A stretch of 64,000 bases of DNA. Origin: Myxococcales bacterium. Lineage in GTDB: Bacteria; Myxococcota; Myxococcia; Myxococcales; Myxococcaceae. Within the stretch, counting starts at the first letter, position 1; every line of letters begins with the position of its first letter. Position numbers and translations under genes: made by a program. The notes beneath the pieces were generated by a model that worked only from the letters and a program-made list of their open reading frames with translations, had not been told where the DNA came from and did no database searches. Location: contig JAUXZV010000023.1 in the NCBI GenBank assembly GCA_030693825.1, positions 38,984 through 102,983 on the forward strand. The letters are read 5' to 3'. Shown here one piece after another: positions 3,475-56,868 of this stretch.

Positions 3475-3611
3475 CCCGCGCTGAGCGGCCTCTCACGACC
3501 GCCCACGCCACCGAGACCTCAGCGCGGCTCGCAGGTTGACTGCTCCTCGCGTTCGTCGCCTGTTGTTTCGCCGAGCCACCGCATGGGACGACGTGCCTCG
3601 AGTGCGACGCG

Positions 3612-3794: not shown

Positions 3795-3856
3795 AGTCCG
3801 GGCGACGCGATTCGGCGCGACGAGTTGGCACTGCCGCGCTCACTCGCCTTCGATCG

Positions 3857-5209
3857 CTACGGAAGACACGCCGCAGCACACAAGCCCTGCTCACACCGCC
3901 CCGACGCGCAGTCAGCGCCCGTGCGACACGCCTGGCCCGGGCCCTGCGGCTCGATGCACACCGCGCCGCCGTCAGCGCCGTCGAGGCACGCGCCCCACAG
4001 ACACGGCCTGGTCGTCGAGCACGGCTCGCCCAGCGCAGGGAGCCCCACACAGTTGCCCGCGACGCAGGCGCTCAACGCCAGACAGTCGCGCGAGGTGCTG
4101 CAGACCGACGCGTTCTTCAGCAGCGGCGCGCAGCTTCGACCGCCGTCGGCCTCGACACAGGTGAGGTGGCCCTGACAGTCACTGGCGACGCGGCAGGGCT
4201 CCGTCGCGGGCTTGAGCACGGAGCACACGCCGCGCTGCTGACCGGTCTCGATGAGGCACGTCGCACCCTGAGGGCATTGTTGACGCGGGGAGCACTCGGC
4301 GCCGATGGGGGCCGACGACGCGACGCACGACTGGGTGATGGCGTCGCACACCAGGCTCGGGCCGCACTGAGAGTCGTCGTTGCAGCCGAGGCCTGCGTCG
4401 CGGCGTGACTCGCACACGCCGCCGTCCGCCGACGCGACGCAGAACGCCGAGTCGTCGCAGCGGCCGACGACACAGGGCTGCTCGGCGACGGGCAGGCGAC
4501 GACACGCTCCGGCGCTGCAGACGAGGCCCGGGGCGCACAGCTGGGTCGGGCCACACGGCGCAGACTCGGCCCCGAACTGGCTGCACTGGCTCGAGCCCGA
4601 CGCGCCCAGGGGCGGCCGGCAGTAGAGGTTCGCCTGGCAGTCGGCGGTGGTGAGGCAGACCTCTGCGATGGCGCCACGGGCCAGGCACTTGCGCGGGCAG
4701 CCGCCGCCGCGACACACGCCGTCGGAGCACTCCTGGTAGCCGTCGTAGCAGCGGCCACCGAGCGAGACGGCCGGGAGCAGGAAGCTCTTGCACGAGGCCG
4801 GCTCCATCGCCCAGTCGCTGCACGAGCGGGTGGCCCAGTCGGTCGCGCACGTCTGCGCACGAATCGCGTCGTAGCGCAGCGTGCCCACCTCGACGCGTGA
4901 GGGCCATTGGGTGGGGCCGCACCAGGTCGCCGTGAGCCACGCCACGCACGCGCGGTAGGCGTCGGTCGTGTCGTCGATGACGCCGCAGGTGCGCAACGTC
5001 TCGCAGCGCCGGGCGTTCAAGGTGGCACAGGCGCTCCTCAGCGGAAGCCCTCCGTCAGCCGAGCCACCGCCCGTGCCCGATGAGCCGCCGCCCACGCCGC
5101 CGGCGCCGATGCCGCCGTCGGGGAGGACCAGGAGCGGTGGAGGCACGGGGCTGCACGCCACGATGACGCCCGCGATGAGTCCGATGACGAAGGCGTGTGA
5201 GGTCGTCAC
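3857..5209 (-). CDS. Cysteine-rich repeat secreted lipoprotein
   Basis: 450 aa. Signal peptide plus lipobox (IVACS), a Gly-rich linker, then more than ten Cys-rich modules (C-x-C-x(n)-G-x-C pattern). It lies 12 bp downstream of its paralog. Confidence 0.7.
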   Translation of the reverse strand: MTTSHAFVIGLIAGVIVACSPVPPPLLVLPDGGIGAGGVGGGSSGTGGGSADGGLPLRSACATLNARRCETLRTCGVIDDTTDAYRACVAWLTATWCGPTQWPSRVEVGTLRYDAIRAQTCATDWATRSCSDWAMEPASCKSFLLPAVSLGGRCYDGYQECSDGVCRGGGCPRKCLARGAIAEVCLTTADCQANLYCRPPLGASGSSQCSQFGAESAPCGPTQLCAPGLVCSAGACRRLPVAEQPCVVGRCDDSAFCVASADGGVCESRRDAGLGCNDDSQCGPSLVCDAITQSCVASSAPIGAECSPRQQCPQGATCLIETGQQRGVCSVLKPATEPCRVASDCQGHLTCVEADGGRSCAPLLKNASVCSTSRDCLALSACVAGNCVGLPALGEPCSTTRPCLWGACLDGADGGAVCIEPQGPGQACRTGADCASGRCEQGLCAAACLP

Positions 5210-5221
5210 TGCAAACGCTTC

Positions 5222-6487
5222 CTACAGCCCGGCGTCGGCCTTCAGCGAGCAGGCGATTCCGCACGTCCCGCCAAAACCACCGTCGGGGCGACGGCCGAAC
5301 TCGCATTCATTCGACAGGCACATGCCATCATAGTCGCAGTCGTCACCCGGCGCACGCCGGCGTGTGCAGCGACGGTCGTCCGAGCCGCTGAACTGGCAGA
5401 AGTAACCCGTCAGACATCGCCCGCTGCTGCCCACCGTGTAGCCGCAGTCCCCACCATCGCCGGGGAAAGGCTCGCAGCGCTGGTTCACGTTGGAGCAGAA
5501 CAGCCCATCTTCGCAGTCGTTGTAGACGGAGCACGTCTCGCCACGTCGAGCGCGGGCGAGGCAGGTGCCGGTGGTGATGACGGTGGAGCAGCGCAGCGAC
5601 GGCAGGCACGTTCCGCTCCCGGCGCAGGTGCCGTTGAGGCCCGTTCGCCGCTGGCAGGTTCCAGGCGGGGGCGGCTCACCTTCCATCGCGGGCGGGCCCT
5701 GACGGCAGAAGTACTCGTCGGCGCAGAACGGGTACCCGCTCGTCGCGCCGCACACCTCGCCGGCATCGGCCCGGCGCGCGACGCACCGCTGGTTGATGCA
5801 CGCGCCCTCGGCGCCGCACTCGTCGAAGTCGACGCACGCGTCGCCGGCGCGCTTGAGCGGGTTGCACGTCTCGACGCCACTGTCGGCGCGGTAACACCCG
5901 AGCGTCGGCTCGCAGCGGCGGAAGAAGTCGCAGGTCTCGCCCGCAGCGCGGAAGGCGCGGCAGGGGTAGGGGCAGGTGCCCGTGTAGATGTCGCAGTAGC
6001 TGCCGGCGCTGCAGTCGTCGGCGATGACGCAGCCGCCATCGGCGGGAACGCGGCCGGAGAAGAGGCCTGCGCACGAAGCAGGCTCCCGGGTGCAACTGCC
6101 GGTGGCGTAGGCGTTGAGGCAGGTGACGGCGCGCGTCGAGTCGAACACCAGCCGGCCTGCGTCGACGCCGGTGTCGAAGGCCAGCTGGTCGCAGCCGTCG
6201 GCCGTGCGCACCACGCAGTCGGTGAGCGAGGACTCCGAGAGGCTCAGGCAGCGCACCTGTCGCAGGCAGGTCGCCAGCGCCTTCGTGCGGCACCACGTCG
6301 CCGCCGTCGCCAGGGTGAAGCCGGCGTCGACCGTGCCGCCGTCGAAGCGCATGCGGCCCGCGTCGATTTCAGGCTCGACGTCTCCCGCATCGACCACTGG
6401 CGTGATGGACGCGTCAGGCGTCACCATCATCATCGGCGGAGGGCAGGCGGTGAGGGCAACGACGCTGATGGCGAGAAGGCGACGCAC
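5222..6487 (-). CDS. Cysteine-rich repeat secreted lipoprotein (paralog of the gene at 3857-5209)
   Basis: Same Cys-rich module architecture. I chose the GTG start at 6487, which gives the signal peptide VRRLLAISVVALTAC and begins right after the XdhC stop at 6499. The ORF-track start at 6730 would overlap XdhC. Confidence 0.65.
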   Translation of the reverse strand: MRRLLAISVVALTACPPPMMMVTPDASITPVVDAGDVEPEIDAGRMRFDGGTVDAGFTLATAATWCRTKALATCLRQVRCLSLSESSLTDCVVRTADGCDQLAFDTGVDAGRLVFDSTRAVTCLNAYATGSCTREPASCAGLFSGRVPADGGCVIADDCSAGSYCDIYTGTCPYPCRAFRAAGETCDFFRRCEPTLGCYRADSGVETCNPLKRAGDACVDFDECGAEGACINQRCVARRADAGEVCGATSGYPFCADEYFCRQGPPAMEGEPPPPGTCQRRTGLNGTCAGSGTCLPSLRCSTVITTGTCLARARRGETCSVYNDCEDGLFCSNVNQRCEPFPGDGGDCGYTVGSSGRCLTGYFCQFSGSDDRRCTRRRAPGDDCDYDGMCLSNECEFGRRPDGGFGGTCGIACSLKADAGL

Positions 6488-6498
6488 GAGCGCGCACC

Positions 6499-7296
6499 CT
6501 ACACCGACGCGAGGTGACGCGCCTTGGCTTTGACCCGCTCGGCCCGGCGAACCGCCACCAGGCGCGCGGCGATCGACAGCCCAATCTCGACCGGCGTCAA
6601 CGCTCCGATGTCGAGGCCCATGGGGCACTCGAGCGCCTCGACGCGGTCCTTCGAGAAGCCCCCCGCGAGGAGCCGCTGACGAAACCGCTCGGCCTTGCGG
6701 CGGCTCCCGATGACGCCGAGGTAGCTCCACGGCTTGTCGAGGAGCGCTTCGACGCAGCGTTGGTCGAGCGGGTGGTCGTGCGTGGCGACGGCGAAATACG
6801 TGTCGGGTCCTCCGGCGTGTTCGCGCGCGACGTCATCGGCCGGGCGCACCAGCACCCGCGCGCCGGGGAACCGTGCGTCGGTCGCCCATTCGGTGCGCTC
6901 GTCGGCGACGGTGACGTCGAAGCCTGCGGCGACGGCGAGGGCCGAGAGCTCCTTCGCGACGTGGCCCGCGCCGAAGAGGACGAGGGCCGGCGCGGCGGCG
7001 TGCTTCTCGAGGAACACCGTCATGCGCCCGCCGCAGCACATGCCGAGCTCGTGCGTGAGGTGCGTGTCGAGGGTCGAGGTGGTGGTGGACGACTGCAGGA
7101 GCGCCAGGGCCGCGTCGACGATCTGCTTCTCGATGGCGCCGCCGCCCACGGTGCCGACGAGCGAGCCATCGGCCTTCACCACCAGCTTGCTGCCAGGCTT
7201 CTGCGGGGTCGAGCCATGCGACGCGATGACGGTGCAGAGGACGAAGGGGTGCCCCTCGTCGATCAACTGCTGCAGGTCGCGGAAGAAACCATTCAC
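6499..7296 (-). CDS. xdhC: XdhC/CoxI family protein (xanthine dehydrogenase accessory factor-like)
   Basis: 265 aa. The N-terminal XdhC_CoxI domain (LCTVIASHGSTPQKPGSKLVV) and a C-terminal Rossmann-like domain (ALVLFGAGHVAKELSALA) are present. No xdhAB genes are in the window. Confidence 0.85.
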   Translation of the reverse strand: MNGFFRDLQQLIDEGHPFVLCTVIASHGSTPQKPGSKLVVKADGSLVGTVGGGAIEKQIVDAALALLQSSTTTSTLDTHLTHELGMCCGGRMTVFLEKHAAAPALVLFGAGHVAKELSALAVAAGFDVTVADERTEWATDARFPGARVLVRPADDVAREHAGGPDTYFAVATHDHPLDQRCVEALLDKPWSYLGVIGSRRKAERFRQRLLAGGFSKDRVEALECPMGLDIGALTPVEIGLSIAARLVAVRRAERVKAKARHLASV

Positions 7297-7309
7297 GGGT
7301 CTGGCGAGC

Positions 7310-8332
7310 CTACTCCACCTCGTCGCTCTTCACCGAGGCGCACAAGGTCGTCGGGACGACGTTCGCCGACCCGTTCAGCGTGGGGCTCTTCGCGCGCTCG
7401 AGTGCAGCGGGCAGCTCGGCCTCGATGCTCCGCAGCTCGCCACACAAGGCCACCCGGCTGCGCGCGAGCTTCGGCGTGGGCTTGCGCTTGTACGAGGCCG
7501 CCACGGTCTCGAGCTGCTTCTGGTTCGCGGCGTGTCGCGCCACCAACAGCTTCACGTGCGCGGCGTGACGCCGGCGCATCGCCTCGGTCTGCGCCTTCAC
7601 CACGTCGGCCGCCGCGTCCGGGCTCTCCTGCGTGGCGTCACCGTTGAGCAGCGGCAGGTCGACGGTGAGCTCGAGCGCGGTGCGGGGCTGGGCCTGCAGC
7701 GCGGCTTCGAGGCAGCGCTCCACGGCGTCGGCGAGCGGGTCCGATGAGGTGACGACGTCGATGGGGGCGTCGGGCAGGTGCGTGAGGACGAGCTGCGGAG
7801 GCGCGTTCACGCCGAGCGCCACGAAGCACGAACAGGCGCTCGTCACCGCGGCGCGGAGGGCGTTCACCTCGGGCAACAGCTCGAGCGATGGGTCCGGAGC
7901 ACCCACCGGAGGCGCGACGACCAGCACGTTCACCAGGGGCGTCGAGGCGGCGCCGGTCAGCGTGAGGTCCTTCACGCGGGCCTCGAGGCAGGCCACACCC
8001 TCTGCGGTCACGTTGCGTGGCGTCACGCGCGCGCTCGCCGTCGCCGAGACGGTCACCTCGAGGTCGGCGCTGGCGTCTGGGCGCTCCCGGCTGGTCGGCG
8101 GCGCCAGACACGCCTCGAAGCGCGGGCGCTCGAGCTCGAGGAACGCCGCGAGCGTCTCGTTCGTCAGGCCGCTCGGCGGCGCCGGCTTCGCACACGCGCT
8201 CACATCGAAGGCCAGGGCTCGAACCCGCACGGCGTTCGCGCGCGGCGCGGGCACCAGCGGCTCGACGGGCTCGGGAATCGGCTTCGCCGTCACGCACGAC
8301 GTCAGAACGAGCAGCCCCACCAGCGCACGCAT
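7310..8332 (-). CDS. Hypothetical lipoprotein
   Basis: 340 aa with signal peptide and lipobox LVLTSC. It sits 14 bp downstream of xdhC on the same strand. Confidence 0.55.
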   Translation of the reverse strand: MRALVGLLVLTSCVTAKPIPEPVEPLVPAPRANAVRVRALAFDVSACAKPAPPSGLTNETLAAFLELERPRFEACLAPPTSRERPDASADLEVTVSATASARVTPRNVTAEGVACLEARVKDLTLTGAASTPLVNVLVVAPPVGAPDPSLELLPEVNALRAAVTSACSCFVALGVNAPPQLVLTHLPDAPIDVVTSSDPLADAVERCLEAALQAQPRTALELTVDLPLLNGDATQESPDAAADVVKAQTEAMRRRHAAHVKLLVARHAANQKQLETVAASYKRKPTPKLARSRVALCGELRSIEAELPAALERAKSPTLNGSANVVPTTLCASVKSDEVE

Positions 8333-44830: not shown

Positions 44831-46366
44831 GTGGCGCTGGCGTTCGGCACGGCGGCGGGCTGCTCGTTCTATTCCCCCACCATCGTCGACTGCGCCATCA
44901 CGTGTGGCGAGAGCGGCCCCTGCCCCGGAGGCACGACGTGCCGCAACGGGTTCTGCCGCCTCGAGTCGTCGATGGGCGACTGCGCGTGCAAGCTGGGCGA
45001 CACGCGCGAGTGTGGTGGTGGACGCGGCGAGTGCAAGAAGGGCACGGAGGTCTGCACCTCGGAGCGTGTGTGGAGCGGCGTCTGCGTCAACGAGGGCCGC
45101 CCCTCGGTCGAGGTCTGCAACAACAAGGACGACGACTGCGATGGGCTGGTCGACGATGAGGTGACGGACACCCAGGCGTGCACGCTCACGCTGGGCGTCT
45201 GCGCCGGCAGGAAGAACCGCTGTGAGTCCGGTGAGCAGTTGGTGTGCGACGCCTCCGACTACGGGTCTGCGTACCAGGTCGCCGAGGCGCGCTGCGATTC
45301 GCTCGACAACGACTGTGACGGCTTCACCGACGTCCGCGCGCTCTCGGTGTTGACCAACGAAGCCTCGACGACGGCGCCGTTCCAGCTGCTCGCGATGCCG
45401 CAGGGCTTCTCGCTGGTCTTCGAGCGCCGACCCACGGCGGGCACGCCCGAGCTCATCGTCGCCCGGTACGACGAGGCCTTCGTCTTTCAACGCAGCCACG
45501 TCGTCGCGCGGCCTCCGCCGGCGCAGTTCCAGGCGCGCTCGCTCGGTGAGTCCGTCTTCGTCGCGACGACGACCGATGGTGGCGTCGGCCTCACGCGGGT
45601 GAACACGCTGCTGGCTGGTGACGCGGGCCTCGAGGGCTTCGAGACGCTGGTCGACGCGGGCTTCTGGGGCGGTCTGCGCCTCGGCGTGGGCGAGCAGGCC
45701 GTCAGCACCTTCCTCGCGGACACGAACGGCAACCGGGCGCGCCTGCTGATCTGGGAGTTCGATGGTGGGCTCTCGCAGATTCGCGACGTGAACGTGGGGC
45801 CCGGCGTTCCGCCGAACGTCACGCTCAACTCGGTCAACCTGAGCGACCGTGGCCACTTCATCATCTACAGCGCCGACGACGCGGACGGCGACACGGTGAG
45901 GCAGCTCATTCGGCTCGGTGACGGCGGCGTGTGGAGCCCGCCGTACTACGGAGGCCTCGACGCCGAGCTCCACGAGTGGGACGCGGGCGTGTCGGCGACC
46001 TACGCGTACTCCGACACCAACTCGTCGCTCTCAGGGGTGTACTTTCTTCCCGACCTGACGCGCGGGCTTCCCGAGGTGGCGGCGGCCGCGTCGTTCCTCG
46101 CCCAGCAGTGGGGCGCCGCGTCGGCGTTCCGCACGCAGTCGGGCGACCTGAACGTCGCGATGCAGGAGCGCGTGCCCGGCGGTGGGCAGCAGATCGTCGT
46201 GGGCACGTCGGTGCCAGTCGGTGACACCTTCAGCTTCCGGCTGAGAAATCTCGACGGCGGCGCAGGCGTGCCGGCGGTGGTGGCCTCGTCGGTGGAGCCC
46301 GGGTGGCTGTTCGTCGGCTGGCGCGACATGGCCTCGATTCGGGTGCGGAAGGTCTGCGCGCCCTGA
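44831..46366 (+). CDS. Cysteine-rich (putative metal-binding motif) secreted protein
   Basis: GTG start, 511 aa. The N-terminal ~160 aa contain CxxC and DxDxDGxxD-type repeats (CNNKDDDCDGLVDDE, CDSLDNDCDGFTD). The rest is non-repetitive. Confidence 0.55.
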   Translation: MALAFGTAAGCSFYSPTIVDCAITCGESGPCPGGTTCRNGFCRLESSMGDCACKLGDTRECGGGRGECKKGTEVCTSERVWSGVCVNEGRPSVEVCNNKDDDCDGLVDDEVTDTQACTLTLGVCAGRKNRCESGEQLVCDASDYGSAYQVAEARCDSLDNDCDGFTDVRALSVLTNEASTTAPFQLLAMPQGFSLVFERRPTAGTPELIVARYDEAFVFQRSHVVARPPPAQFQARSLGESVFVATTTDGGVGLTRVNTLLAGDAGLEGFETLVDAGFWGGLRLGVGEQAVSTFLADTNGNRARLLIWEFDGGLSQIRDVNVGPGVPPNVTLNSVNLSDRGHFIIYSADDADGDTVRQLIRLGDGGVWSPPYYGGLDAELHEWDAGVSATYAYSDTNSSLSGVYFLPDLTRGLPEVAAAASFLAQQWGAASAFRTQSGDLNVAMQERVPGGGQQIVVGTSVPVGDTFSFRLRNLDGGAGVPAVVASSVEPGWLFVGWRDMASIRVRKVCAP

Positions 46367-46444
46367 AGCGGTGGTGGGACGGACGCGGAGTGCGCTCCGA
46401 CGAGTCACCGCGCTCGATGCGCGGGTCGGGCTCCAACGAGCCGC

Positions 46445-46492
46445 AACGAGTGTCATGACTCGGGCGGTTTTCGGCGCGCGCTGTCACGACAG
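46445..46492 (+). repeat. Copy A of a ~48-bp conserved non-coding element (AACGaGTGTCAcGA-T-GGGCGGTTTcCGc...GTGaCG)
   Basis: aacgagtgtcatgactcgggcggttttcggcgcgcgctgtcacgacag. It aligns without gaps to copies B, C and D. Confidence 0.8.
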
Positions 46493-46654
46493 CGAGGCCC
46501 AGACGCGCCTCCGGCCCTGACGAAGGAGAAGCCCGGTTCTGCTGTGGAGAGGCGTCGTGCGCGAGCGGACGCCATCGTCGCGGGAGAACGCCTCGGGGTG
46601 TGGCACCAGGCGCCCCGGAGCGAACAGCCGGCGAGGAACACCGTCGTGGAGCCG

Positions 46655-46702
46655 GAACGAGTGTCACGATTGGGGCGGATTCCGCACGGGCCGTGACGGA
46701 CG
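46655..46702 (+). repeat. Copy B of the ~48-bp conserved element
   Basis: aacgagtgtcacgattggggcggattccgcacgggccgtgacggacgg. It lies 210 bp from copy A in a 484-bp convergent intergenic region. Confidence 0.8.
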
Positions 46703-46850
46703 GCGAGCGCGCTTCGACGAGCCACTCACTCGCCCACCGAGGACATCCGCTGAGAGGTTCTGCGCTCCTGTCGTGTCCGGCGCGGTTTCAACCCCCGTGA
46801 CGGATTGCGTGCCTCTTCGGCTCGCGAACGGAACGCATGTCGCGACGGCG

Positions 46851-47642
46851 CTACGGCTCGTCGATGAACTCCGCCACCTCGGCCGTGAGCCGGGCGCGGT
46901 CGACGTCATGAGTCAGAATGTGAAAGCCGCGCTGGAGCACCAGGAAGCGCGACCCGGGCATGTCGGCGTGCAGCGCCTCGATGCTCTCGAGTTGCACGAC
47001 GTGGTCCTGCACGGCCGCCGCGATGAGCGTCGGTGCCTTCACCCGCGGAGCCGCGCGCCGCGCCAGCCGCTGCAGCTCGAACAGGTCGAGCAGCCGGCCG
47101 AGCGGGTACCTGGGCAGTACGGGAGACTGGGCGCGCGCCGCGTCGTCTTCGAGGTCGGTCGTCGTCTTCTCGAGCCACTTCGCGGCAAAGCCCTGCAGCG
47201 CGCCCGGCCCCAGCCGCTCGAGCAGCCGGCCAGCGCGCCGCTGCACCCGCATCACCGGCGCCATCAACACCAGCTTCGACACCCGCGCGCCGTGCCGTTC
47301 GGCCAGCAACAGCCCCAGCAGCCCGCCCATCGACAGCCCCGCGATGCACACCCTTGGGAACCGCGTGAGGGAGTCGAACGAGGCCTCGGCGGCAGCGAGC
47401 CACTCCCGCCACGTCACCCACAGCATGTCCTCGGGCGTGGTGCCGTGGCCGGGGAGCCTGGGCGCGCGAACGAAAAAGCCGCGGGCCGCGAGCGACTCGG
47501 CCAGCGGCCGCACCTCCCACGGGCTCCCCGTGAAGCCATGGAGCAGCAGCACCGCGGTGCTCGCGTCAGGCGGGCCGAGGTCGAACGACGACGTGCGGGC
47601 GGGGTCGAGAGGGAAGGACACGACGAGCGCGCCGATGGTGAC
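46851..47642 (-). CDS. Alpha/beta hydrolase (monoacylglycerol lipase / carboxylesterase family)
   Basis: AVLLLHGFTGSP and the nucleophile elbow GLSMGG are present. The start is ambiguous: GTG at 47642, or ATG at 47720/47723. The latter would overlap the divergent DUF3467 start codon. Confidence 0.75.
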   Translation of the reverse strand, partial: VTIGALVVSFPLDPARTSSFDLGPPDASTAVLLLHGFTGSPWEVRPLAESLAARGFFVRAPRLPGHGTTPEDMLWVTWREWLAAAEASFDSLTRFPRVCIAGLSMGGLLGLLLAERHGARVSKLVLMAPVMRVQRRAGRLLERLGPGALQGFAAKWLEKTTTDLEDDAARAQSPVLPRYPLGRLLDLFELQRLARRAAPRVKAPTLIAAAVQDHVVQLESIEALHADMPGSRFLVLQRGFHILTHDVDRARLTAEVAEFIDEP

Positions 47643-47721
47643 AGGCCCGCGTGCCAGCGCAACACGTTTGCACTTCCGAGGGTTCACCTCGTGCGGTCCC
47701 CGGGGTACACCGTCGAGCATC

Positions 47722-48012
47722 ATGAGTGAAACGCCCAAGCCGCCCGAGATTCAGCTCCAGATTCAGCTCGACGACGACGTGGCCAACGGCCGCTACGCGA
47801 ACATGGCGCTCGTCAACCACACCGAGACCGAGTTCACGCTCGACTTCATCTACGTGCAGCCGCAGCAGCCTCGCGCGAAGGTGCTCTCGCGCATCATCAC
47901 CAACCCCAAGCACATGAAGCGCCTGTTGATGGCGATTCAAGAGAACCTCGCCAAGTACGAGTCGAAGTTCGGGCCGGTGGAGCTCATCGACCCCGGCACT
48001 CCAGTGCACTGA
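47722..48012 (+). CDS. DUF3467 family protein
   Basis: 96 aa. ANGRYANMALVNHTETEFTLDFIYVQPQQPRAKVLSRIITNPKHMKRLL matches the DUF3467 pattern. Confidence 0.8.
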   Translation: MSETPKPPEIQLQIQLDDDVANGRYANMALVNHTETEFTLDFIYVQPQQPRAKVLSRIITNPKHMKRLLMAIQENLAKYESKFGPVELIDPGTPVH

Positions 48013-48061
48013 GGGCGTGAATGTGGTGAGCGCCGGAGCGTCGCAGCGGTCGATGCCGTCG

Positions 48062-48853
48062 ATGAGGTCCACGTGGCTGTGGTGTGCGCTCGCCCTGGTG
48101 GCGGCGGCTGCGCCTCGCGCCCACGCCGCCTGCGAAGACGGCATTCGGTTGTTTCCTTCGCCCGGCGCGACGGTGCCGACCAACGTGCACTTCGTGCTCG
48201 AAGGGGTGCTGAACGAGCAGGAGCGCGTGTCGAAGCTCGTCGGCTCGTCCGAGCTGGCGCTCCTCGGCGGCGGAGACCCGGTCGGCGTGACGGTCGAGAA
48301 GGGTTGGTCGTCGACGATGAACCGCGTCGCGGTGAAGCTGAAGCCGACGCGGCCGCTCCAGCCGAACACCGAGTACACGCTCACCATCGGCCGCGCGCTG
48401 CCCATGGTGAAGCTGCTCAACGACACCTGGGGCGACAACACCGCGCGGTGGAAGACGGGCCCCTCGGCCGACACCGTCGCGCCGAAGTTCCTCACCAAGC
48501 CCGCCGTGTCAGAGGGGTTCTACCAGCGCACGCGCGACGGGTTGACCCGCACGCTGAAGCTGCGCACGCAGGTCAACGACATCGGCGCCTCCTACCTGCT
48601 GGTGACGATGCAGCGCGCGCGCGGAGTGGCCGCCAAGCAGCAGTACCCCGTGCCGCTCGACAGTGACGCGGTGGTGTTCGGCCATGACGTCTGCTCCGGG
48701 AGCTTTGGCTTCGATGATGGGCGCGCGTACCGGCTGGTGGTCGAGCTGTACGACGCCGCCGGCAACGGCGCGGCGAAGCCGTTCAACCTCGAGCTCTCGG
48801 CGCCGCGTCCGACAGGCCCTGAGCCCGAGCCCGAGAAGCAAGACAGTCGCTGA
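48062..48853 (+). CDS. Hypothetical secreted protein
   Basis: Start at MRSTWLWCALALVAAAAPRAHA (signal peptide). About 263 aa. Confidence 0.5.
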   Translation: MRSTWLWCALALVAAAAPRAHAACEDGIRLFPSPGATVPTNVHFVLEGVLNEQERVSKLVGSSELALLGGGDPVGVTVEKGWSSTMNRVAVKLKPTRPLQPNTEYTLTIGRALPMVKLLNDTWGDNTARWKTGPSADTVAPKFLTKPAVSEGFYQRTRDGLTRTLKLRTQVNDIGASYLLVTMQRARGVAAKQQYPVPLDSDAVVFGHDVCSGSFGFDDGRAYRLVVELYDAAGNGAAKPFNLELSAPRPTGPEPEPEKQDSR

Positions 48854-48859
48854 GCCAGC

Positions 48860-49411
48860 TCACCGCGCTCCAGCATCGGGAATGGTGGGCCAGGCGAAGA
48901 GGCTGGCGTCGAGCGCCGTCGGTCGGAGCTCCTTCACGCGCGAGCTGACCTTTCTGGTCGGGCCGTTCCAGAACTTCTGGGAGCACTCCAGCGGAATTCC
49001 AGGCAGCTCGCCGGCGAAGCTCGGGTTGCAGGCCGGTCCACGTCGTCGTCATCAGCACCAGCAGCGGGAACCACGCCATCGTCTTCGTCGAAGGAAAGAG
49101 GCGCCCGAAGGACACCGCGTCGAGGCCGGCCGCGCTCCACGGCGTGTAGCAGCCACTGAAGCTGAGCTCCGGCGAGCTTGCCGCTGCCAGGTGCTCGATG
49201 CATTCGCGCCGCAGCAGGCGCCGCTTCGAAGGTTGGCGCTCGAAGCGATAGACGAGTCGATCGCCTGACGGCGCAACCGCCGGGTCAGGGTATCGACGAT
49301 GCGCCGAACGCTGTTCTCGACGGGCTCCGAGATGACGGTGACGCCCGAGGCCGTGTCGCGAAGGAAGAGGACGGTGGGCGTCTTCCCCGTCTCGACCAGG
49401 ACCCGCAGCAT
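48860..49411 (-). pseudogene. Decayed gene remnant whose coding signal (GC3) moves through three reading frames
   Basis: Frame A (49411 to ~49280) reads MLRVLVETGKTPTVLFLRDTASGVTVISEPVENSVRRIVDTLTRRL. Frame B (~49280 to ~49050) reads RLVYRFERQPSKRRLLRRECIEHLAAASSPELSFSGCYTPWSAAGLDAVSFGRLFPSTKTMAWFPLLVLMTTTWTGL. Frame C (~49060 to 48860) reads NPSFAGELPGIPLECSQKFWNGPTRKVSSRVKELRPTALDASLFAWPTIPDAGAR*. GC3 is high only in the active frame of each segment, and local GC is lower than the surroundings. Confidence 0.35.
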
Positions 49412-49734
49412 CGTGCCGCGCAGAGAGACGGTGGTGAGTTGCTGTCTCCCATCGACGTTTGCTTCGGAGACGAGCGTAAAGTGAGGAGCAGTGCGGTGCG
49501 CATCGCGTGCAGGCGCGAAGAGGCCGCGACGGTGAGCTCGTGTGCAGTCGATGCAACAGGTGCCCGGACCAGTGCACGGAGGTGTTGGTGCTCCGACCGT
49601 CCAGAAACGCCAAGGGACCTGACATGGGCACCCGCGGTCCGGGTCTGAAACGTCTGAAACACCTGATGTTTTCGGCGCTCTCTCAAAAGTTGGCAAGGCG
49701 CTCGCAATGGAGTCCCGGCGAAGGGGAATCCACC

Positions 49735-50148
49735 GTGCGCGTTCTGCTCCTCACCATCGTCGTCCTGCTCTCCGCTGCGTGCGCAGGGGAGTACTCCGCG
49801 ACGCCTGAGGAGCTCGCCCGCTACGAGTTCTTCGCCGAGGTGCAGGTGAACCCGACGGCGCCGGTGGCGGGTCGCATGGTGAACCTGAACCTCGAGCTGT
49901 CGAGCCGTTCCAATCAGCTGGTGGTGGTCGACGTGATTCTCCGCGCGGTGCGTGCCGACGGCAGCGTGATGAACGAGCAGGTGTGGCCGCGGGTGACGTT
50001 TCACCCTGAAGAGGTGTGGAACCTCACGCAGGGCTTCCTGTCGCGCACCGACGAGCGTGGCGCCTTCGACGTCGTCATCGAGACCCGCGAGTCTGCGTCG
50101 GGCAAGGTGCTCTGGACCGGCCCCGGCCTGAAGTACACGTTCCGTTAA
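49735..50148 (+). CDS. Small hypothetical lipoprotein
   Basis: GTG start, VRVLLLTIVVLLSAAC lipobox, 137 aa. Its 3' end is partially duplicated immediately downstream. Confidence 0.45.
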   Translation: MRVLLLTIVVLLSAACAGEYSATPEELARYEFFAEVQVNPTAPVAGRMVNLNLELSSRSNQLVVVDVILRAVRADGSVMNEQVWPRVTFHPEEVWNLTQGFLSRTDERGAFDVVIETRESASGKVLWTGPGLKYTFR

Positions 50149-50149
50149 G

Positions 50150-50260
50150 GCTGACGTTTCAGGACCTGCGCCTTCGACGTCGTCATCGAGACCCGCGCTC
50201 ACGTCCGCGTTCGTTGCACGATGCGCTGGACTGGTCCGGGCTCCACGGACGAGCCCTGTC
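50150..50260. repeat. Duplication scar: decayed second copy of the last ~100 bp of the upstream gene plus a 17-bp segment matching the downstream gene
   Basis: The 30-mer gcgccttcgacgtcgtcatcgagacccgcg occurs at 50059-50088 and again at 50168-50197. ctgacgtttcaggacct at 50150-50166 pairs with ctgacgcttcaggacct at 50295-50311, which lies inside the acyl-CoA synthetase gene. Confidence 0.7.
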
Positions 50261-51881
50261 AAGGCAACGCGAAGTCCTTGAACCGATCGCGCAGCTGACG
50301 CTTCAGGACCTTTCCCGTCGGGCCCAGCGGCAGCGCGTCGACGAACTCGATGGCATCGGGTAGCCACCACTTCACCAGCTTCGTCTCGAGAAACGCCTGG
50401 AGCTCGGCCTTCGAGACGTCCTGGTCTTTGTGCTTCACGACGACGAGCAGGGGGCGCTCGACCCAGCGCGGGTGAGGAATGCCGACGGCCGCGGCCTGCG
50501 CGACGGCCGGGTGCAGGGTGGCCGCGTGCTCGACGTCGATGGAGCTGATCCACTCTCCGCCCGACTTGATGACGTCTTTGCTGCGGTCGGTGATCTGCAT
50601 GTAGCCCTCGCCGTCGATGGTGGCGATGTCACCGGTGGCGAACCAGTCTCCGTCGTGATGCGAGCGGTCGTCGGAGTGGAAGTACGCGCTCGCCACCCAG
50701 CCGCCCTTCGCCTGCAGGTGGCCTGACGTCTTACCGTCGTGAGGCACGACCTTGCCGTCGTCATCGACGAGGCGCAGGTCGACGCCGAAGATGGGCCGGC
50801 CCTGCTTGAGCTGAATGGCGAGGCGCTGCTCCTTCGAGAGGGCGTGGTGGTTGGGCAGGAGCACGCACGCGGTCCCCAGCGGCGACAGCTCCGTCATGCC
50901 CCAGGCGTGCAGCACCCGCGCGCCGTGCTCTTCCTGGAACGCGGTGATCATCGAAGGCGGGCAGGCCGAGCCGCCGATGGTGACCTTGGTGAGCGTCGAC
51001 ATGGTGACCTGCTTCGTCTTCGCCGCCGCCAGCAGGCCGAGCCACACGGTCGGCACGCCGAGCGCGCTGGTGACCCCTTCGGCCTGAATGAGGTCGAGCA
51101 GGCTCACGCCGTCGAGCGCGGGACCCGGCATCACCAGCTTCGAGCCCACCATCGCCGCGGCGTACGGCACACCCCACGCGTTGACGTGGAACATCGGCAC
51201 GACGGGGAGCGTGACGTCCTGCGCCGAGATGGCGAGCGCGTCGGCCATGCAGATGGCGTAGCTGTGCAGCACGGTGCTGCGGTGCGAGTAGAGGACGCCC
51301 TTCGGCATCCCCACGGTGCCCGACGTGTAGCAGAGCGAGCTGGCGGTGTTCTCGTCGAGGGCCGGCCACGAGAAGGTCGTCGGCTGGCCCGGGAGCAACG
51401 ACTCGTAGGCGCGAAGGCCCGCGATGCCAGTGTCCTTCGGCAGGTGCGCTTCGTCAGTGAGGGCGATGAACTGCGTGATGGGCCCGGGCACCGAGGCAAG
51501 GTGCTTCGCGAGCGGGGTGAAGGTGGTGTCGAAGCAGAGCATCACGTCCCCCGCGTCGTTGGCGATCCACGCGAGCTGGTCTGGAGGCAGGCGCGGGTTG
51601 ATGGTGTGGAGGACAGCGCCCATGCCCGAGACGGCGAAGTAGAGCTCGAGGTGACGCTGGGTGTTCCACGCGAGCGTCGCGACCACATCACCGGGCTTGA
51701 TGCCCGCGGCGGTCAACGCGTTCGCGAGCTGCCGCACGCGGTCGGCGAGGCCCGCCCACGTGGTGCGAACGATGGGCCCTTCGACGGTGCGGGTGACGAT
51801 CTCGACCGAGCGGTGAAAGCGGGCGGCGAACTCGAGCTGCGACGAGATGAGCAGCGGCTGCGTCATCATGAGGCCGTTCAT
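50259..51881 (-). CDS. AMP-dependent acyl-CoA synthetase/ligase (long-chain fatty-acid CoA ligase-like)
   Basis: Start at MNGLMMTQP (51881), 540 aa. The AMP-binding motif [33 protein letters not shown] and the C-terminal Lys are present. Confidence 0.9.
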
Positions 51882-51987
51882 CGGGGCTCCTGGGCGGGGG
51901 ACAACAGGACCCCACGATGTACTCCGGCGAATCGCGCGACGGGGGGCGTTTGAGCTGACGCGGCGCACCACCAACGGGGAGCGCCCG

Positions 51988-52035
51988 AACGCGTGTCACC
52001 TCTGGTGCGGTTTCCGCCCGGATGCTGACGGTGAA
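51988..52035 (+). repeat. Copy C of the ~48-bp conserved element (immediately 5' of nudC)
   Basis: aacgcgtgtcacctctggtgcggtttccgcccggatgctgacggtgaa. Confidence 0.75.
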
Positions 52036-52041
52036 CGCGCC

Positions 52042-52852
52042 GTGCCTGGGGTAGTCACCCCCTGGCCGTTCCTCCCGCAGGTCGTCATTCCGTCGCCGTT
52101 GCCTGCCTTGGCCCACTGGTTCGTGTGTGGGGAGAACGAGGTACTGCTTCGGCGGGAAGGCGTTGGCGTCGAACAGCTCCCCACGTTCGCCGAGCTTGGG
52201 GGGCTGGACCCTGCCGACGCTCCGATGGTCGGGCTCCTCGATGGGGTTCCGTGCCTGTCACTGCGCTGGCCGCGAGGGAGCGCAGCGCCACAGGCGTTCG
52301 AGTTCGTCGGGCTGCGCGGCCTGTGGGCTCGTCTCGACGAGACGCTCTTCGGCATCGCCGGGCGCGCGAACCAGCTCGCGCACTTCGCGTCGACGCACCG
52401 GTTCTGTGGGCGGTGTGGGGCTCCGACGACTCGCGATGCGGCCGATCGCTCCATTCGGTGCCCGGTGTGCGCGCAGGTGAACTACCCGCGCATCACGCCC
52501 GCCATCATCACCCTCGTGCGTCGCGGAGACGAGGCGCTGCTCGCGAACTCGGGCCGGTTCCCCGTCGCCTTCTTCAGCACCCTGGCCGGGTTCTCCGAGG
52601 TGGGCGAGTCGCTCGAAGAGACGCTGGTGCGCGAGGTGCACGAAGAGGTCGGCGTCCAGGTCGCCAACGTTCGATACTTCGGGAGCCAGCCCTGGCCGTT
52701 CCCGCACTCGCTGATGATCGGCTTCACGGCCGATTGGGTCTCGGGGGAGGTGGTGCCGGACGGCCTGCCACGAATTCCACCGCGCGAGCATCGCGAGACG
52801 GTTGATCGACGCCTGGGTGAAGGACGTCACCGGCCACGAGACCGGCACCTGA
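52042..52852 (+). pseudogene. nudC: NADH pyrophosphatase / NAD-capped RNA decapping Nudix hydrolase (NudC) with internal frameshift and a short deletion
   Basis: GTG at 52042. The NudC zinc ribbon CGRCGAPTT...CPVCAQVNYPRITP and the Nudix box GFSEVGESLEETLVREVHEEVGV are present, followed by SLMIGFTADWVSGEVVPDGLPRIPP. The conserved NudC C-terminus ASIARRLIDAWVKDVTGHETGT* is encoded only in the +1 frame from ~52775. About 10-14 residues, including the ARWF-like segment, are missing relative to typical NudC. Confidence 0.55.
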
Positions 52853-52865
52853 CTCGAGCCGCAGC

Positions 52866-52913
52866 GCTCGTCACGAATCGGGCGGTTTCCGCGCGCGCGG
52901 TGCCAGTCGATGT
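52866..52913 (+). repeat. Copy D of the ~48-bp conserved element (immediately 3' of nudC, 5' of the DUF559 gene)
   Basis: agcgctcgtcacgaatcgggcggtttccgcgcgcgcggtgccagtcga. Confidence 0.75.
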
Positions 52914-52960
52914 CAGCCCCCTCTGGTACTCCCAGTCGTCGGACGGGCGGGGAGGGTGGG

Positions 52961-53887
52961 ATGCGTGCAGCAGAGCAGGCAGTCGTGACGTTGGCGGCGG
53001 GTCAGCACGGCGTCTTCAGCGTCGAGCAGGCCGTCGAGCGCGGCATGTCGGTCGATCAAGTGAAGCGCCGCGTGCGCGCCGGGCGCTGGAGACGCGTGTT
53101 CCCTGGCGTCTGCGTCATCGCAGGGAGCCCGGAGACGTGGCGGCAACGTCTCAAAGCGAGCGCGCTGTGGTTCGGCCCACGGTGTGTCTTCTCGCATCGC
53201 ACCGCCGCGGCGCTCTGGGGACTCTCTGGTTTCTCCGATGACGCGGGGCCGATCGTCATCGCCTCGACCCGGCACGTGAGCGCCCCTTCCGGTGTCCGCG
53301 TGTTTCGAATGGGCGCGCTGCTGCCGCGAGAGCTGGCGACGGTCGGTGGCCTTCGAGTCACCTCGATCGAGCGAACGTTGCTCGACCTCGCCGCCGAAGA
53401 GCGTGAGGCCGACGTCTCGACTGCGCTCGACGAGGCGCTTCGGCGAAAGCTCACGACCCCGGAGCGACTGACGGCGTTCATCGACCGTGCAGGAGGGACG
53501 CCAGGCATTCGGGTGCTGCGCCGGCTCACCCAGCGGCGCGCCGGGCTCGGCGGGGTGCCTGAGAGCGAACTCGAGTCGCGAGTTCTGGAGCTGCTCGATG
53601 AGCACGGCATGCCGCGACCAGTGCTCCAGCAGAAGGTGACGGCGCGCAGCCGGCGCTACCGGCTCGACTTCAGGTTCCCCGGAACGGCGGTCGTCCTCGA
53701 GGCCGATGGGTATGCGTGGCACTCCTCTGTCGACGCGTTCGAGCGAGACCGGCAACGAATCAACGCGCTCACGGTGAGAGGCTACCGGGTGCTGCGGTGG
53801 ACGTGGGCGGCCCTTCATGACCGGCCCGACGAGCTCATCGACGAGCTTCGAAAGGTGCTGTCGGCCCCGCACTCGCGGGCTGCGTGA
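52961..53887 (+). CDS. DUF559 (Vsr/restriction-endonuclease-like fold) protein with N-terminal AbiEi_4-like HTH domain
   Basis: 308 aa. The N-terminal GVFSVEQAVERGMSVDQVKRRVRAGRW and the C-terminal YRLDFRFPGTAVVLEADGYAWHSS...RGYRVLRW are typical of DUF559. Confidence 0.65.
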   Translation: MRAAEQAVVTLAAGQHGVFSVEQAVERGMSVDQVKRRVRAGRWRRVFPGVCVIAGSPETWRQRLKASALWFGPRCVFSHRTAAALWGLSGFSDDAGPIVIASTRHVSAPSGVRVFRMGALLPRELATVGGLRVTSIERTLLDLAAEEREADVSTALDEALRRKLTTPERLTAFIDRAGGTPGIRVLRRLTQRRAGLGGVPESELESRVLELLDEHGMPRPVLQQKVTARSRRYRLDFRFPGTAVVLEADGYAWHSSVDAFERDRQRINALTVRGYRVLRWTWAALHDRPDELIDELRKVLSAPHSRAA

Positions 53888-53925: not shown

Positions 53926-56868
53926 CTACGCGAACAACTCCAGCAGGTCGTCCTTCGTCAGCGCGCCGGCCGACTGACCATCTCCGAGCGCTGCTTCGAA
54001 CAGCGCACGCTTCTTGTCCTGCAACGTGAGGATGCGCTCCTCGACTGTTCCCTGCGAGACGAGGCGATAGACGAACACCGGCTTGTCCTGCCCGATGCGG
54101 TGCGCCCGGTCGGCGGCCTGGGCTTCGACGGCCGGGTTCCACCACGGGTCGACGAGGAAGACGTGATCCGCCGCCGTGAGTGTGAGGCCGGTGCCGCCCG
54201 CCTTCAGGGAGATGAGCATCACCGGCGGGCCCGCCTCCGTCTGGAACTCGGCCGTCACCTCGCCGCGATTCGGGGTCGAGCCGTCGAGCCTCGAGAAGCG
54301 CACGCCCGCCGCGGTCAGCTCGGGCTCGATGAGGTCGAGCAGCTTCGTCCACTGCGAGAACACGAGCGCCTTGTGCCCATCGGCCACGGCCGTCGCGAGC
54401 GCATCGACGAGCGTCTGCACCTTCGACGAGGTCTTCGCCAGCTGGCCTGGAATCAGCGCCGGGTGACACGCGGCCTGACGCAACCGCAGCAGCGCCTCGA
54501 GCGCCTTGAGCACGCTCCCGCCCTGGCCGAGCAGCTTCACCACCTCATCCTTCGTGGCAGCGAAGATGGCGTCGTACGTGGCGCGTTCGCGTTCATCGAG
54601 CGTCACCGTGCGCACCACCTCGGTGCGCGGCGGCAGGTCCTTCGCGACGTCTTTTTTCAACCGGCGCAGGACGAACGGCTTGAGCCGCTTCCTCAACTCG
54701 AGCCTCGCGGTGGCGTTCCCCTCGGCGATGGGGCGCGCGAGCGTCTCGTCGAACTGACGCCGGCCACCGAGCAGACCCTGGTTGCTGAAGTGCATCAGGC
54801 TCCAGAGTTCGTCGAGGCGGTTCTCGACGGGCGTTCCCGACAGCGCGAGCCGGAACGGAGCCTTCAGCGCGAACGATGCCTTCGCCGCCTGGCTCTCGGG
54901 GTTCTTGATGTTCTGCGCTTCGTCGAGCACCAGCGCGCTCCACTCCCGCGCCTGCAGCTGCACGAGGTCGAGCCGCAGAATCGCGTACGTCGTCACCGTC
55001 ACGTCGACGTCGTCGAGGGCGCGGTTGGGCCCATGGTACGCGTTGACGGTGAGCGAGGGCCTGAAGCGCTTGAGCTCGGCGAGCCACGTCGGCAACACGC
55101 TCGTCGGGCACACCACCAGCGACTTCTTCCCCAGCACGCACGCCGTCTGCAGCGTCTTGCCCAGGCCCATGTCGTCGGCCAGCACGCCACCCAGGCCCGC
55201 GCGCTGAAGGAACTGGAGCCACGCCACGCCCTGCACCTGGTACGGCCGCAGCGTCGCGGTGAGGTCGGCGGGGAGCGTGGGCTCAGGCAGCGACTCGAAC
55301 CCGTCGGCCAGCGGCTTGAGTCTGTCGAGGCCCAGCGGCGTCGGCTGCTCGAGCGAGTCGCAGAGCTCGGCGAGGCGGGGGAGCGCGTGGTTGGCGAGCG
55401 TTCCGTTCTCCTGCTTCGCGGCGAGCAGCGCAGCGATGCGGGCGCCCTGCGCTTCGAGGAACTCAGAGGGCAGCTGCGCCCAGCCACCACCTTCGATGGG
55501 CACCAGCCCGTAACCATCTTCCCAGGCCCGCAGCACCGCGGCGCCGTCGACCTGCGTCGGCATTCCGGCCGTGCCACCCACCAGCTCGAAGTCGAAGGAG
55601 AACGCGACCGACGGCACGCCCGCGCCGGTCCGGTCGTCGAGCTTCATGCGGGGAATGAGCTTCAGGTCGGGGCTCAGCTTGCGCGCCGCATCGCCCGTCA
55701 ACCCGCCGCGCCACTTTCGCAGCGAGTCGGCGAACCGAATGGCTTCGGGACCGTTCACCGTCATGCGCCGACCAGGCACGAGGTTCAGCGTGTCGCGCAG
55801 GTGATGAAGCAGCCGCTGCTCCTGCGCTTCGTCACGAACCGGCACCGGCCCCCGCAAGTACACCATGCGGCCTGCGTCGATGCGCACCGTCGGCGGCGCG
55901 CCGTAGACGAGCGTCGGGAGCACCGAGAGGCCCTGCTCCAGCTGATTGACCTCGAGCACGACGCGCGGCTCGAGGCGCGCGTCGACCCGTGGCAACCGCG
56001 AGCTCGTGACCTCGACGGAGAAGCGGCGCGCGAGCTCCGGCACCACGGTCGCGCTCACCTCACCGGCCTGCGCCGCCGAGAACGTCTTCACCACCGGCAG
56101 CTTCTCGAGCCACGCGCCGGTGAAGGACTGCTCCCCGAGGCGGAAGAGCGTGTCACCCGCGACGGCGACGCCGGCCCCGAGCACTTCGGTCACGCGTGAG
56201 TCCTTCGCGACCGTCACCACGATGCTGTCGGCGTCGTCCTTCACCGTCACGCGTGGGAGCAGCAGCTCCGAGGCGATGGCCACCGGCCGCCCATCGAGCA
56301 GCACGGTGCGGCTGGGCTGCAACACGCCGAGCACTGCGTCGACCCGCTCGGGCGGCAACGCGAGCCGTGTCTTCTTCTCGAGCAGCCGGTCGGCCTGAAG
56401 GTCGTGCTGCTCCACCTGCAGCCGTTTCGCGGTGGCCGGGTTCGCGAGCGCCGCGGCGAGTGAGTCGAGCGGCGTCTCGACGCCCTCGGGCGTCACCACG
56501 GCGCGCTGAACCTGCAGCCCGCTCTCGACGCGCACGATGCGGTAGACGACGCGCGAGTACCGGCTCTCGACGGACGCCAGCGTGGTGCCCGACTCGGCCG
56601 CTTCTTTGAGCGTGATGGCCGCAGCGACCGAGTGCTCGCAGGGGTCGACCGGCGCCGGGCAGTTGCACTCCCACGACGAGTCCTTCGGCGTGAGCACCAC
56701 CGTCCAGGGCACTGGCCGGCCGCCTGCCTTCACGCGCAGGACGATCTCGGTGCCATCGGTCGACTCCTGCACCACGGCGCCCGCGCGCGCGAGCTTCACG
56801 CCGTTCGACCAGACGCCTGGCTTGGCTTCTCCGCGCACCGCCTCGAGTAACGTCACCGCATCCGACAT
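53926..56868 (-). CDS. SNF2-family helicase with N-terminal SWIM zinc finger
   Basis: 980 aa. The SWIM C-x-C-x(n)-C-x-H motif ([14 protein letters not shown]) is present. The SNF2_N domain carries the DEAQ box [11 protein letters not shown] and the ATP-binding motif [11 protein letters not shown] helicase-C domain ([21 protein letters not shown]) follows. Confidence 0.9.

Follow-up and report, generated by a model that had tools for sequence, protein, structure and literature searches.

A family of small dispersed intergenic repeats in uncultured Myxococcaceae and its possible link with a standalone AbiEi-DUF559 gene

The 64,000-nt stretch of the Myxococcales bacterium assembly GCA_030693825.1 analyzed here (contig JAUXZV010000023.1, positions 38,984 to 102,983; hereafter, the window) carries four copies, termed c1 to c4, of a short non-coding element that had been singled out in an earlier note on this DNA. 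We estimate at about 70% the probability that these are lineage-specific, imperfectly palindromic repeats of approximately 52 bp, similar in kind to repetitive extragenic palindromes (REP), mycobacterial interspersed repetitive units (MIRU) and miniature inverted-repeat transposable elements (MITE), and that c4 forms part of the conserved sequence preceding a gene that combines AbiEi and DUF559 regions, the product of which would be the binding partner of the element. The family as such is a small dispersed intergenic repeat, a member of no named family and new in a small clade of uncultured Myxococcaceae. The G+C content of the window is 68-72% throughout, and the nearest relatives of its proteins come from uncultured Myxococcota labelled either 'Archangium sp.' or Myxococcaceae.

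The repeat unit and its distribution

All four copies lie on the forward strand of the window, at 46440..46491 (c1), 46651..46702 (c2), 51983..52034 (c3) and 52858..52909 (c4). The earlier note had described an element of about 48 bp with some 75% identity among copies. The strings that it quoted are correct and two of its starts stand (46445 and 51988), but those of c2 and c4 were off by 1 and 3 nt, the in-register positions being 46656 and 52863. Moreover, the conserved block begins 5-7 nt upstream of the start first drawn (GAGCCGnAACG...) and extends over approximately 52 nt, with pairwise identities of 68-78% over the first 40 nt. Two independent tests bear on the reality of the family, namely a leave-one-out scan of the window and the matches found in other genomes. 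In the former, carried out with position-weight matrices (PWM) on both strands of the 64 kb, each left-out copy comes directly behind the three training copies, scoring 22-48 bits as against less than 8 bits for the best unrelated site. A degenerate 29-nt pattern, with up to three mismatches allowed, matches these four sites and no others, compared with 0.09 matches in dinucleotide-preserving shuffles, a type of control that the earlier note had proposed; as the pattern was fitted to the four copies, its scan of the window indicates only the absence of further copies there. Profile searches with nhmmer likewise return exactly four significant copies in the window, with E-values of 2e-9 for c1, 6e-15 for c2, 2.4e-10 for c3 and 2.8e-10 for c4. 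The best preserved is c2 (PWM 68.6 bits); in c1 (42.8 bits) the left 36 nt alone fit the family profile (positions 1-36), the right half having diverged. Two stretches between the same genes as c1 and c2 (46769-46804 and 46829-46850) were considered as degenerate copies and are not significant, even with the search restricted to that gap.

Anchored alignment of the copies yields the consensus ccgAAACGAGTGTCACGAaTGGkGCGGTTTcCGcCC-n5-GTGACG-nn-CGG. The ends of the unit are sharp, with conservation stopping beyond them, and when longer similarity was sought around the copies, matching was seen to end at approximately 52-60 nt. A likeness between the sequences downstream of c3 and c4 was traced to the N-terminal coding sequence of nudC and to a pre-existing flank, both of which are present in L002 (labels of this form designate the loci examined in other genomes). 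At least three subfamilies can be distinguished, which have the left ~34 nt in common and differ in their right halves: CCGCCC-n5-GTGACG in subfamily A, TCGACCCTGCAGCGACGCACG in subfamily B (L008, L014b, L016b, L020a/b and L025) and CCGCACGTCGACTGCCGCACG in subfamily C (L015). The presence of such linked, non-consensus sequence in copies at unrelated loci establishes that they were copied from masters and did not originate independently as binding sites.

The short dyad GTCACG/CGTGAC reported in the earlier note is indeed present, as part of a longer imperfect palindrome whose axis is the middle T of GCGG-TTT-CCGC and in which position p stands opposite position 60-p over 21 positions. This symmetry belongs to the consensus only. 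With the dyad in register, 66% of cells pair, as against 30-46% with the partner slid, and across 27 copies both covariation and the percentage of paired positions are no better than those of column shuffles. The left arm GTGTCACGA is invariant and the right arm varies without compensation (GTGAC, GCGAC, CTGCC, GTGCC, ATGAT...); conservation is highest in the left ~34 nt, which are asymmetric. These observations bear on the idea that the element is a structured RNA or a hairpin of single-stranded DNA, for instance a terminator, a small RNA or a stabilizer of mRNA 3' ends. The consensus dyad speaks for it, as do the copies of type A, for which DNA folding gives the predicted hairpin with an energy of -12 to -13 kcal/mol, but we regard its chances as very slim: covariation does not exceed that of shuffles, type B copies form no such hairpin, the RNA or DNA folding energies of most single copies are no better than those of shuffles, the stem is not followed by a T-run, copies are randomly oriented with respect to transcription, and Rfam provides no match at the gathering threshold for the whole window nor at E<=1 for 46300-46900.

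The family is not restricted to the window. A scan with the 29-nt pattern of 185,579 species genomes, one per bacterial species, gave 21 loci, 12 of which come from three related metagenome-assembled genomes (MAGs): JAUXRI01 (Myxococcales bacterium C12_maxbin.062_sub), with 14 exact pattern matches on 10 contigs, Archangium sp. Bin_47_5, with one, and Myxococcaceae bacterium EUL_206, with two. The other nine loci are scattered single matches in unrelated phyla that show no similarity outside the pattern and were judged by inspection to be due to chance. Once weight-matrix and profile searches of the flanks had added diverged members, the total rose to 31 significant copies in the examined Myxococcota DNA, and the search of other genomes advocated in the earlier note thus reveals a family that is not local. 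JAUXRI01 belongs to a sister of the window genome, its locus L005 being 91-95% identical to window 50.7-58.0 kb, and contains ~19 profile matches, a lower bound given that the assembly is fragmentary and many matches lie near contig ends. In L005, L006, L008, L012, L013, L016 and L020 (JAUXRI01 and JALHMW01), many copies are found 200-1500 bp from the edge of the stored locus. Such proximity to contig ends is consistent with assemblies breaking at repeats and suggests that MAG copy numbers are underestimates. A tighter pattern recovered a single copy from JGI metagenomes, scans of viral contigs, phage records and plasmid records gave no matches, and we found nothing relevant in the literature on myxobacterial REP and REP-associated tyrosine transposases (RAYT) or on myxobacterial intergenic repeats.

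With reading frames judged by coding-type G+C content at third codon positions (GC3), all 31 copies are intergenic, and they occur in both orientations. They are located between convergent genes (window c1/c2, L022 and L015-7428), antisense between co-directional genes (L010/L017, three in L015 and L016b), sense between co-directional genes (L012 and L014) and in divergent promoter regions (c3, L008 and L016a). Their clusters are head-to-tail, comprising the c1/c2 pair of the window, two copies in L014, three in L015 and four in L012. The L012 copies follow one another with a 73-76 bp period in the spacer that separates a CbbQ/NorQ-type AAA gene from its VWA partner (norQ-like/norD-like), and the L015 array has a 58-60 bp period; many units elsewhere are single. 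Spacers shared by the L012 units and by two of the L015 units indicate local tandem duplication, and the coexistence of different subtypes side by side (L014a/b and window c1/c2) indicates separate arrivals in the same gap. The sole inverted pair is found in L020, where the two copies mark the outer ends of a 447-bp local palindrome. This palindrome (L020 357-808) is near-perfect, with arms of ~105 nt and, further in, a 30-nt inverted repeat centred on TTGACA...TCAAC, and is followed at 960-1091 by a 22-bp tandem repeat with five listed copies at a 22-bp step. Taken together with presence/absence differences among relatives, the occurrence of the element at 12 or more further loci, all intergenic, in both orientations and with subfamilies and arrays, supports the REP/MITE-like repeat that the earlier note had listed among its possibilities.

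The pattern of contexts excludes a promoter or 5' untranslated region element and speaks against the operator of an ordinary regulon. A site shared by a regulon, whether an alternative-sigma promoter or the operator of a transcription factor, that arose separately before each gene would fit the position of c3 and c4 just upstream of forward-strand genes and in the same orientation, the strong conservation of the left 34 nt and a conserved island ~65 nt upstream of a start codon in L010/L017. We nonetheless consider it highly unlikely, for copies also occur where two genes converge, in antisense to both neighbours, and in arrays of three or four, the subfamily-specific linked sequence bespeaks copying and not convergent origin, and the neighbouring genes are functionally unrelated (HEAT-repeat, DHHW/AlgX, LysR, response regulator, histidine kinase, AddB-like nuclease and cytochrome c). 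Simple scans of 46300-53000 for sigma-70 promoters and intrinsic terminators found nothing at the copies. By eye, the -24 GG of sigma-54 promoters is GT in all copies, ECF-type promoters are not matched for want of a conserved -10 at the right spacing, and parS, matS, CIRCE and the MrpC box do not fit either.

The AbiEi-DUF559 gene and its upstream region

Copy c4 ends 52 nt upstream of an AbiEi-DUF559 gene (52961..53887, forward strand), the ATG of which is preceded by the ribosome-binding-site-like GGGGAGGG. Its 308-aa product, the candidate binding partner of the element, comprises an AbiEi-type DNA-binding region (residues ~1-180) and a DUF559/Vsr-like PD-(D/E)xK domain (~200-300), as judged by matches to Pfam (AbiEi_4, 5e-9; DUF559, 26.7 bits for a cutoff of 20.6) and PADLOC (AbiEi, 1.6e-32 over residues 4-178). 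A PADLOC homing-endonuclease model is matched weakly (3e-4), similarity to PDB 3r3p is marginal (E 0.17) and NCBIfam returned no name. The 20 homologues compared, with identities as low as 39%, all keep the nuclease-motif residues (RxD, ExDG, H and FExDRxR) unchanged. The gene stands alone, without an AbiEii (DUF1814) partner, and its 3' neighbour, 38 bp off, is a convergent SNF2 helicase. This 980-aa SNF2-family protein (53926-56868, reverse strand) is conserved in L005 and matches the PADLOC models DpdE (1e-134) and ZorD (1e-99) over its helicase half.

The AbiEi-DUF559 gene has homologues in three chromosomal locations: after nudC in the window, L005 and L028; between a SpoIID-like gene and queA in L032 (67% identical); and beside a cytochrome c gene in L030, L033 and L034 (57-67% identical). 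A clear member of the repeat family (E 1.5e-10), the sole copy in 10.9 kb, precedes the ATG by 59 nt in L032, and diverged palindromes with the same GGnGCGGnTTCCGC centre and different outer arms are present upstream of the gene in L030, L033 and L034. Downstream of the palindrome, each of the seven sequences has a box of the form GATGTCAGCCC-n2-3-CTG-S-TA, an imperfect inverted repeat in its own right, and the seven genes at the three loci thus carry, 30-105 nt before the ATG, a palindrome together with a further imperfect inverted repeat. The box of the window, GATGTCAGCCCCCTCTGGTAC, maps to 52909..52929 on the forward strand, and alignment reveals its GATGTCAGCCC and CTG-TA to be invariant upstream of 7/7 of the AbiEi-DUF559 genes examined; it is probably an operator or promoter element. 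The exact word TGTCAGCCCC is found nowhere else in the examined DNA and after none of the solo copies. The 3' end of the nuclease gene seemed to hold a directly repeated counterpart of the TGTCAGCCCC box, which was set aside because the other loci do not conserve it.

Between the window and L028, which are 83% identical in the region overall, only ~4 of 75 positions differ from the TCACGA of c4 through the TACTCC at the end of the box, and c4 is conserved better than the adjacent coding DNA. In L002, c3, c4 and the AbiEi-DUF559 gene are all missing together. Proteins of the AbiEi family bind inverted repeats, in one or two sets, within the promoters of their own genes (PMC7319586), and the DUF559 clade has been grouped with Vsr and an intron homing endonuclease (PMC3424549). 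By analogy with the former, c4 and the box probably constitute the control region of the AbiEi-DUF559 gene, and the encoded protein is the likely binder of the element. An operator shared by several promoters, another of the possibilities raised in the earlier note, is not supported as a general explanation of the family, given the convergent, antisense and operon-spacer copies and their unrelated neighbours, and probably holds for c4 alone.

What these comparisons establish is a 52-bp unit with precise limits that is derived from, or common to, the upstream palindrome of the AbiEi-DUF559 gene and that has been copied to tens of intergenic sites within one clade, where it was amplified locally and then drifted, mostly at a neutral rate. 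If the AbiEi analogy holds, the AbiEi-DUF559 protein would bind c4 and the solo copies alike, through the invariant TGTCAC arm and the GCGG-TTT-CCGC centre, and the solo copies would represent extra binding sites originated by copying of the gene's own site. The nuclease may, in addition, help to copy the unit, a role suggested only by its adjacency, by its kinship with homing endonucleases and by the clustering of copies, and for which it is the only candidate in view. We also entertain, as a rather doubtful extension, a REP/RAYT-like partnership in which the fused AbiEi winged helix-turn-helix (wHTH) and Vsr-like nuclease would recognize the element and nick or cut it, with repair or homing-type events copying the unit and, occasionally, the gene to new intergenic sites. 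Such a partnership would explain the palindrome at three gene loci, the invariant left arm and the landing of new copies beside old ones.

The clearest competitor to a link with the gene is an ordinary selfish REP/MITE-like repeat, unrelated to the AbiEi-like protein and moved by a transposase that acts in trans from another locus (RAYT, IS200/IS605 or other), with c4 being one more insertion or the gene tending to land beside existing copies. The element does behave as dispersed repeats typically do, copy and gene are paired at only one type of locus in the window's lineage, the solo copies lack the GATGTCAGCCC box of the gene, and CGTC-type REPs are similarly devoid of a dedicated adjacent transposase (PMC3733652). 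We deem this account unlikely, although not to be dismissed lightly, because the pairing recurs at three chromosomal places with proteins that are just 57-67% identical and because c4 is more conserved than neighbouring coding DNA.

Several points weigh against the reading that we favour, that is, a dispersed repeat bound by the AbiEi-DUF559 protein. The outer arms of the L033 and L034 palindromes differ from the TGTCAC arm of the family, and the invariant box could be the true operator, the palindrome being something else, such as an insulating hairpin. Among ~25 non-orthologous copies, just one adjoins such a gene; the grounds for binding by the AbiEi-like protein are position and analogy; and most solo copies bear no sign of selection, so that the putative extra binding sites may be functionless. 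As regards mobility, no transposase domain is present in the 20 immediate neighbour proteins, the only ones searched within ~250 kb of flanks, a result that also tells against the transposase-driven account; no flanking direct repeat indicative of target-site duplication is enriched over mismatched flank pairings; and no recent identical copies were found, so that active mobility is at most putative. Finally, the copy number, taken from fragmentary assemblies only, is in the tens, as opposed to the hundreds typical of REPs.

History of the copies and of the nudC locus

The two copies c3 and c4 are 875 bp apart and bracket a nudC pseudogene (NADH pyrophosphatase; 52042..52852, forward strand). 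Copy c3 is a solo copy between divergent fadD-like and nudC genes and terminates a few nt short of the nudC reading frame. Comparison with the intact gene of L005 substantiates the degradation of nudC pointed out in the earlier note: the ATG has become TGG, a 39-nt in-frame deletion has removed KEIKEARFFRADA and a frameshift precedes the SIARRLIDAW tail. The orthologs are intact in L005 and in L002, the product of the latter presenting NUDIX Pfam matches. In L005, c3 and c4 flank the intact nudC, and in L028 they flank a nudC that is still called as a gene with NUDIX domains. The existence of both repeats around an intact nudC in the sister genome implies that they are older than the decay and not its cause. 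A recombination scar made during, or causing, the decay of nudC, as the earlier note had also contemplated, would account for the bracketing of the pseudogene by two direct copies; its probability is virtually nil, however, both in view of L005 and L028 and because the start-codon change, the internal deletion and the frameshift all lie away from the repeats, the lesions being internal and point-like with none at a repeat. On the evidence of these sequence comparisons, the bracketing of nudC by c3 and c4 is incidental and, as far as the window is concerned, the repeats are no longer an explanation for the loss of nudC.

The other pair, c1 and c2, is located, as had been described, in a 484-bp gap between convergent genes (46367..46850), with the two copies 211 bp apart and c1 73 nt past the stop of a 511-aa gene. 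This gap is variable among relatives. It spans just 32-36 bp in L001 (87% identical), in L027 and in the P0123-carrying contig, and at least 259 bp in L026 (91% identical), which has c2 and a further copy abutting the hydrolase stop codon; the window counterpart of this further copy is the decayed stretch at 46829-46850. The intergenic site is an insertion hotspot, in which c1 and c2 are two independent-looking arrivals, c3 being an old solo copy before nudC. At the position of the gap, L002 bears a 339-aa RNA-ligase-family gene (6726-7745; PF09414 and PF21189).

Most solo copies are old. Copy c2 differs from its L026 ortholog at 6/52 positions (88% identity), the same rate as the adjacent spacer, and c3 is present in L005 and in L028 (~83% identical), with a near-consensus left half in the latter, decayed in L001 and absent in L002, where the fadD-nudC spacer is 44 bp. 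The divergence of c2 at the rate of its flanks and the orthologs of c3 in relatives show that most solo copies have been vertically inherited and are drifting. At least one copy, that shared by L010 and L017 (87% identical overall), looks to be under constraint: its left 34 nt match at 34/34 positions, while identity barely exceeds one half over the 40 nt on one side and a deletion has removed the other.

Three further features of the window were observed along the way. A gene on the reverse strand at 48863-49503 has decayed, being split over two frames with internal stops in its middle third, and its ortholog, coding for a 223-aa secreted protein, is intact in L026 (638-1309); together with nudC, this makes two pseudogenes within 4 kb, for which assembly indel errors are possible. 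A perfect 30-nt direct repeat, GCGCCTTCGACGTCGTCATCGAGACCCGCG, is found at 50060-50089 and 50168-50197, with one copy in the 3' end of a 137-aa gene and the other 108 bp downstream, and L026 aligns to both stretches, from which the 3' end of the gene appears to have been duplicated. Lastly, over the 1.7 kb at 3474-5222 the GC3-based filter selects no reading frame, although the rest of the window is densely coding.

Bacteria commonly contain small dispersed repeats. Another family of them, from a clade of uncultured myxobacteria, is in itself nothing remarkable, even if it is relevant to assembly, as contigs break at copies, to annotation and as a strain-typing marker. The weight of the present case comes from the recurrent pairing of the element with a standalone AbiEi-DUF559 gene, an uncharacterized architecture that is very numerous in Myxococcota and Actinobacteria. 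No mobilizing or binding protein is known for CGTC-type REPs and for many other repeat families. A defined 52-bp DNA partner opens the function of this class of proteins to direct testing and, if the binding were true, the family would exemplify the spread of a regulator's operator through a genome.

Comparison with known systems

Among known repeats, integron attC sites (RYYYAAC ... GTTRRRY) were discarded by inspection of the consensus, as the left end CCGAAAC is a misfit and the right end lacks the GTT core. The closest parallels are found in the REP/REPIN and RAYT systems (PMC3733652, PMC2817692, PMC3116915), with which the element shares its short length, imperfectly palindromic nature, strictly extragenic location and dispersal, as well as the existence of subfamilies and clusters, vertical persistence over long divergence and the presence of one copy beside a single nuclease-type gene. 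The differences are nonetheless substantial. REPs are 20-40 bp long, with a compensatorily kept stem, whereas the element has ~52 bp and a stem without compensation. They carry an unpaired GTAG/CGTC end tag, and CGTC families have a stem of 8-9 bp and a loop of 4-5 nt (PMC3733652), to which the element does not conform, its consensus beginning with ccgAAACGAGTGTCAC and its TGTC lying in the arm. REPs/REPINs form head-to-head doublets or bacterial interspersed mosaic elements (BIMEs), usually at more than 100 per genome, while the copies reported here are mostly head-to-tail and number at least in the tens, a lower bound from fragmentary assemblies. A RAYT, in turn, is an HUH tyrosine transposase flanked by repeats, as opposed to an AbiEi-wHTH::Vsr-like PD-(D/E)xK protein with a copy on one side only. 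MITEs, for their part, possess terminal inverted repeats and generate target-site duplications; here the whole unit is one palindrome and duplication was not detected.

The mycobacterial MIRU resemble the element in being units of 40-100 bp that occupy tens of intergenic loci of a GC-rich genome, including some inside operons, and that often form short tandem arrays with variable numbers of copies. The MIRU (Supply et al. 1997) are reported to be oriented with the flanking genes and to carry small overlapping reading frames. The element differs in its random orientation relative to genes, in the variable spacers within its arrays and in its palindromic unit. The neisserial dRS3 repeats and their intergenic mosaic arrays (NIME), which are CGTC-1 REPs (PMC3733652), similarly consist of short inverted-repeat units in the same orientation, intergenic and with variable spacers; their sequence is unrelated, the unit described here is longer and it has no known link with phage or IS110-type integration.

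On the protein side, the C-terminal domain of the AbiEi-DUF559 product belongs to the same VSR/DUF559 clade as the Vsr-fold (EDxHD) homing endonuclease I-Bth0305I (PDB 3r3p; PMC3424549). As homing endonuclease genes do, the AbiEi-DUF559 gene forms a tight single-gene insert between housekeeping genes, at a place that varies by genome, but it is found outside any intron or phage, and the similarity of its product to 3r3p is marginal (E 0.17). The AbiEi antitoxin operators of Streptococcus agalactiae AbiEi and Mycobacterium tuberculosis Rv2827c (PMC7319586, PMC3985639) offer the counterpart for the upstream region, an AbiEi-type region being encoded directly downstream of inverted repeats that, in the systems studied, are autoregulatory binding sites (PMC7319586, PMC3985639). 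In contrast to these systems, the gene of the window has no AbiEii (DUF1814) toxin gene beside it, its AbiEi region is fused to a nuclease domain, and the putative operator has been multiplied as solo copies across the genome.

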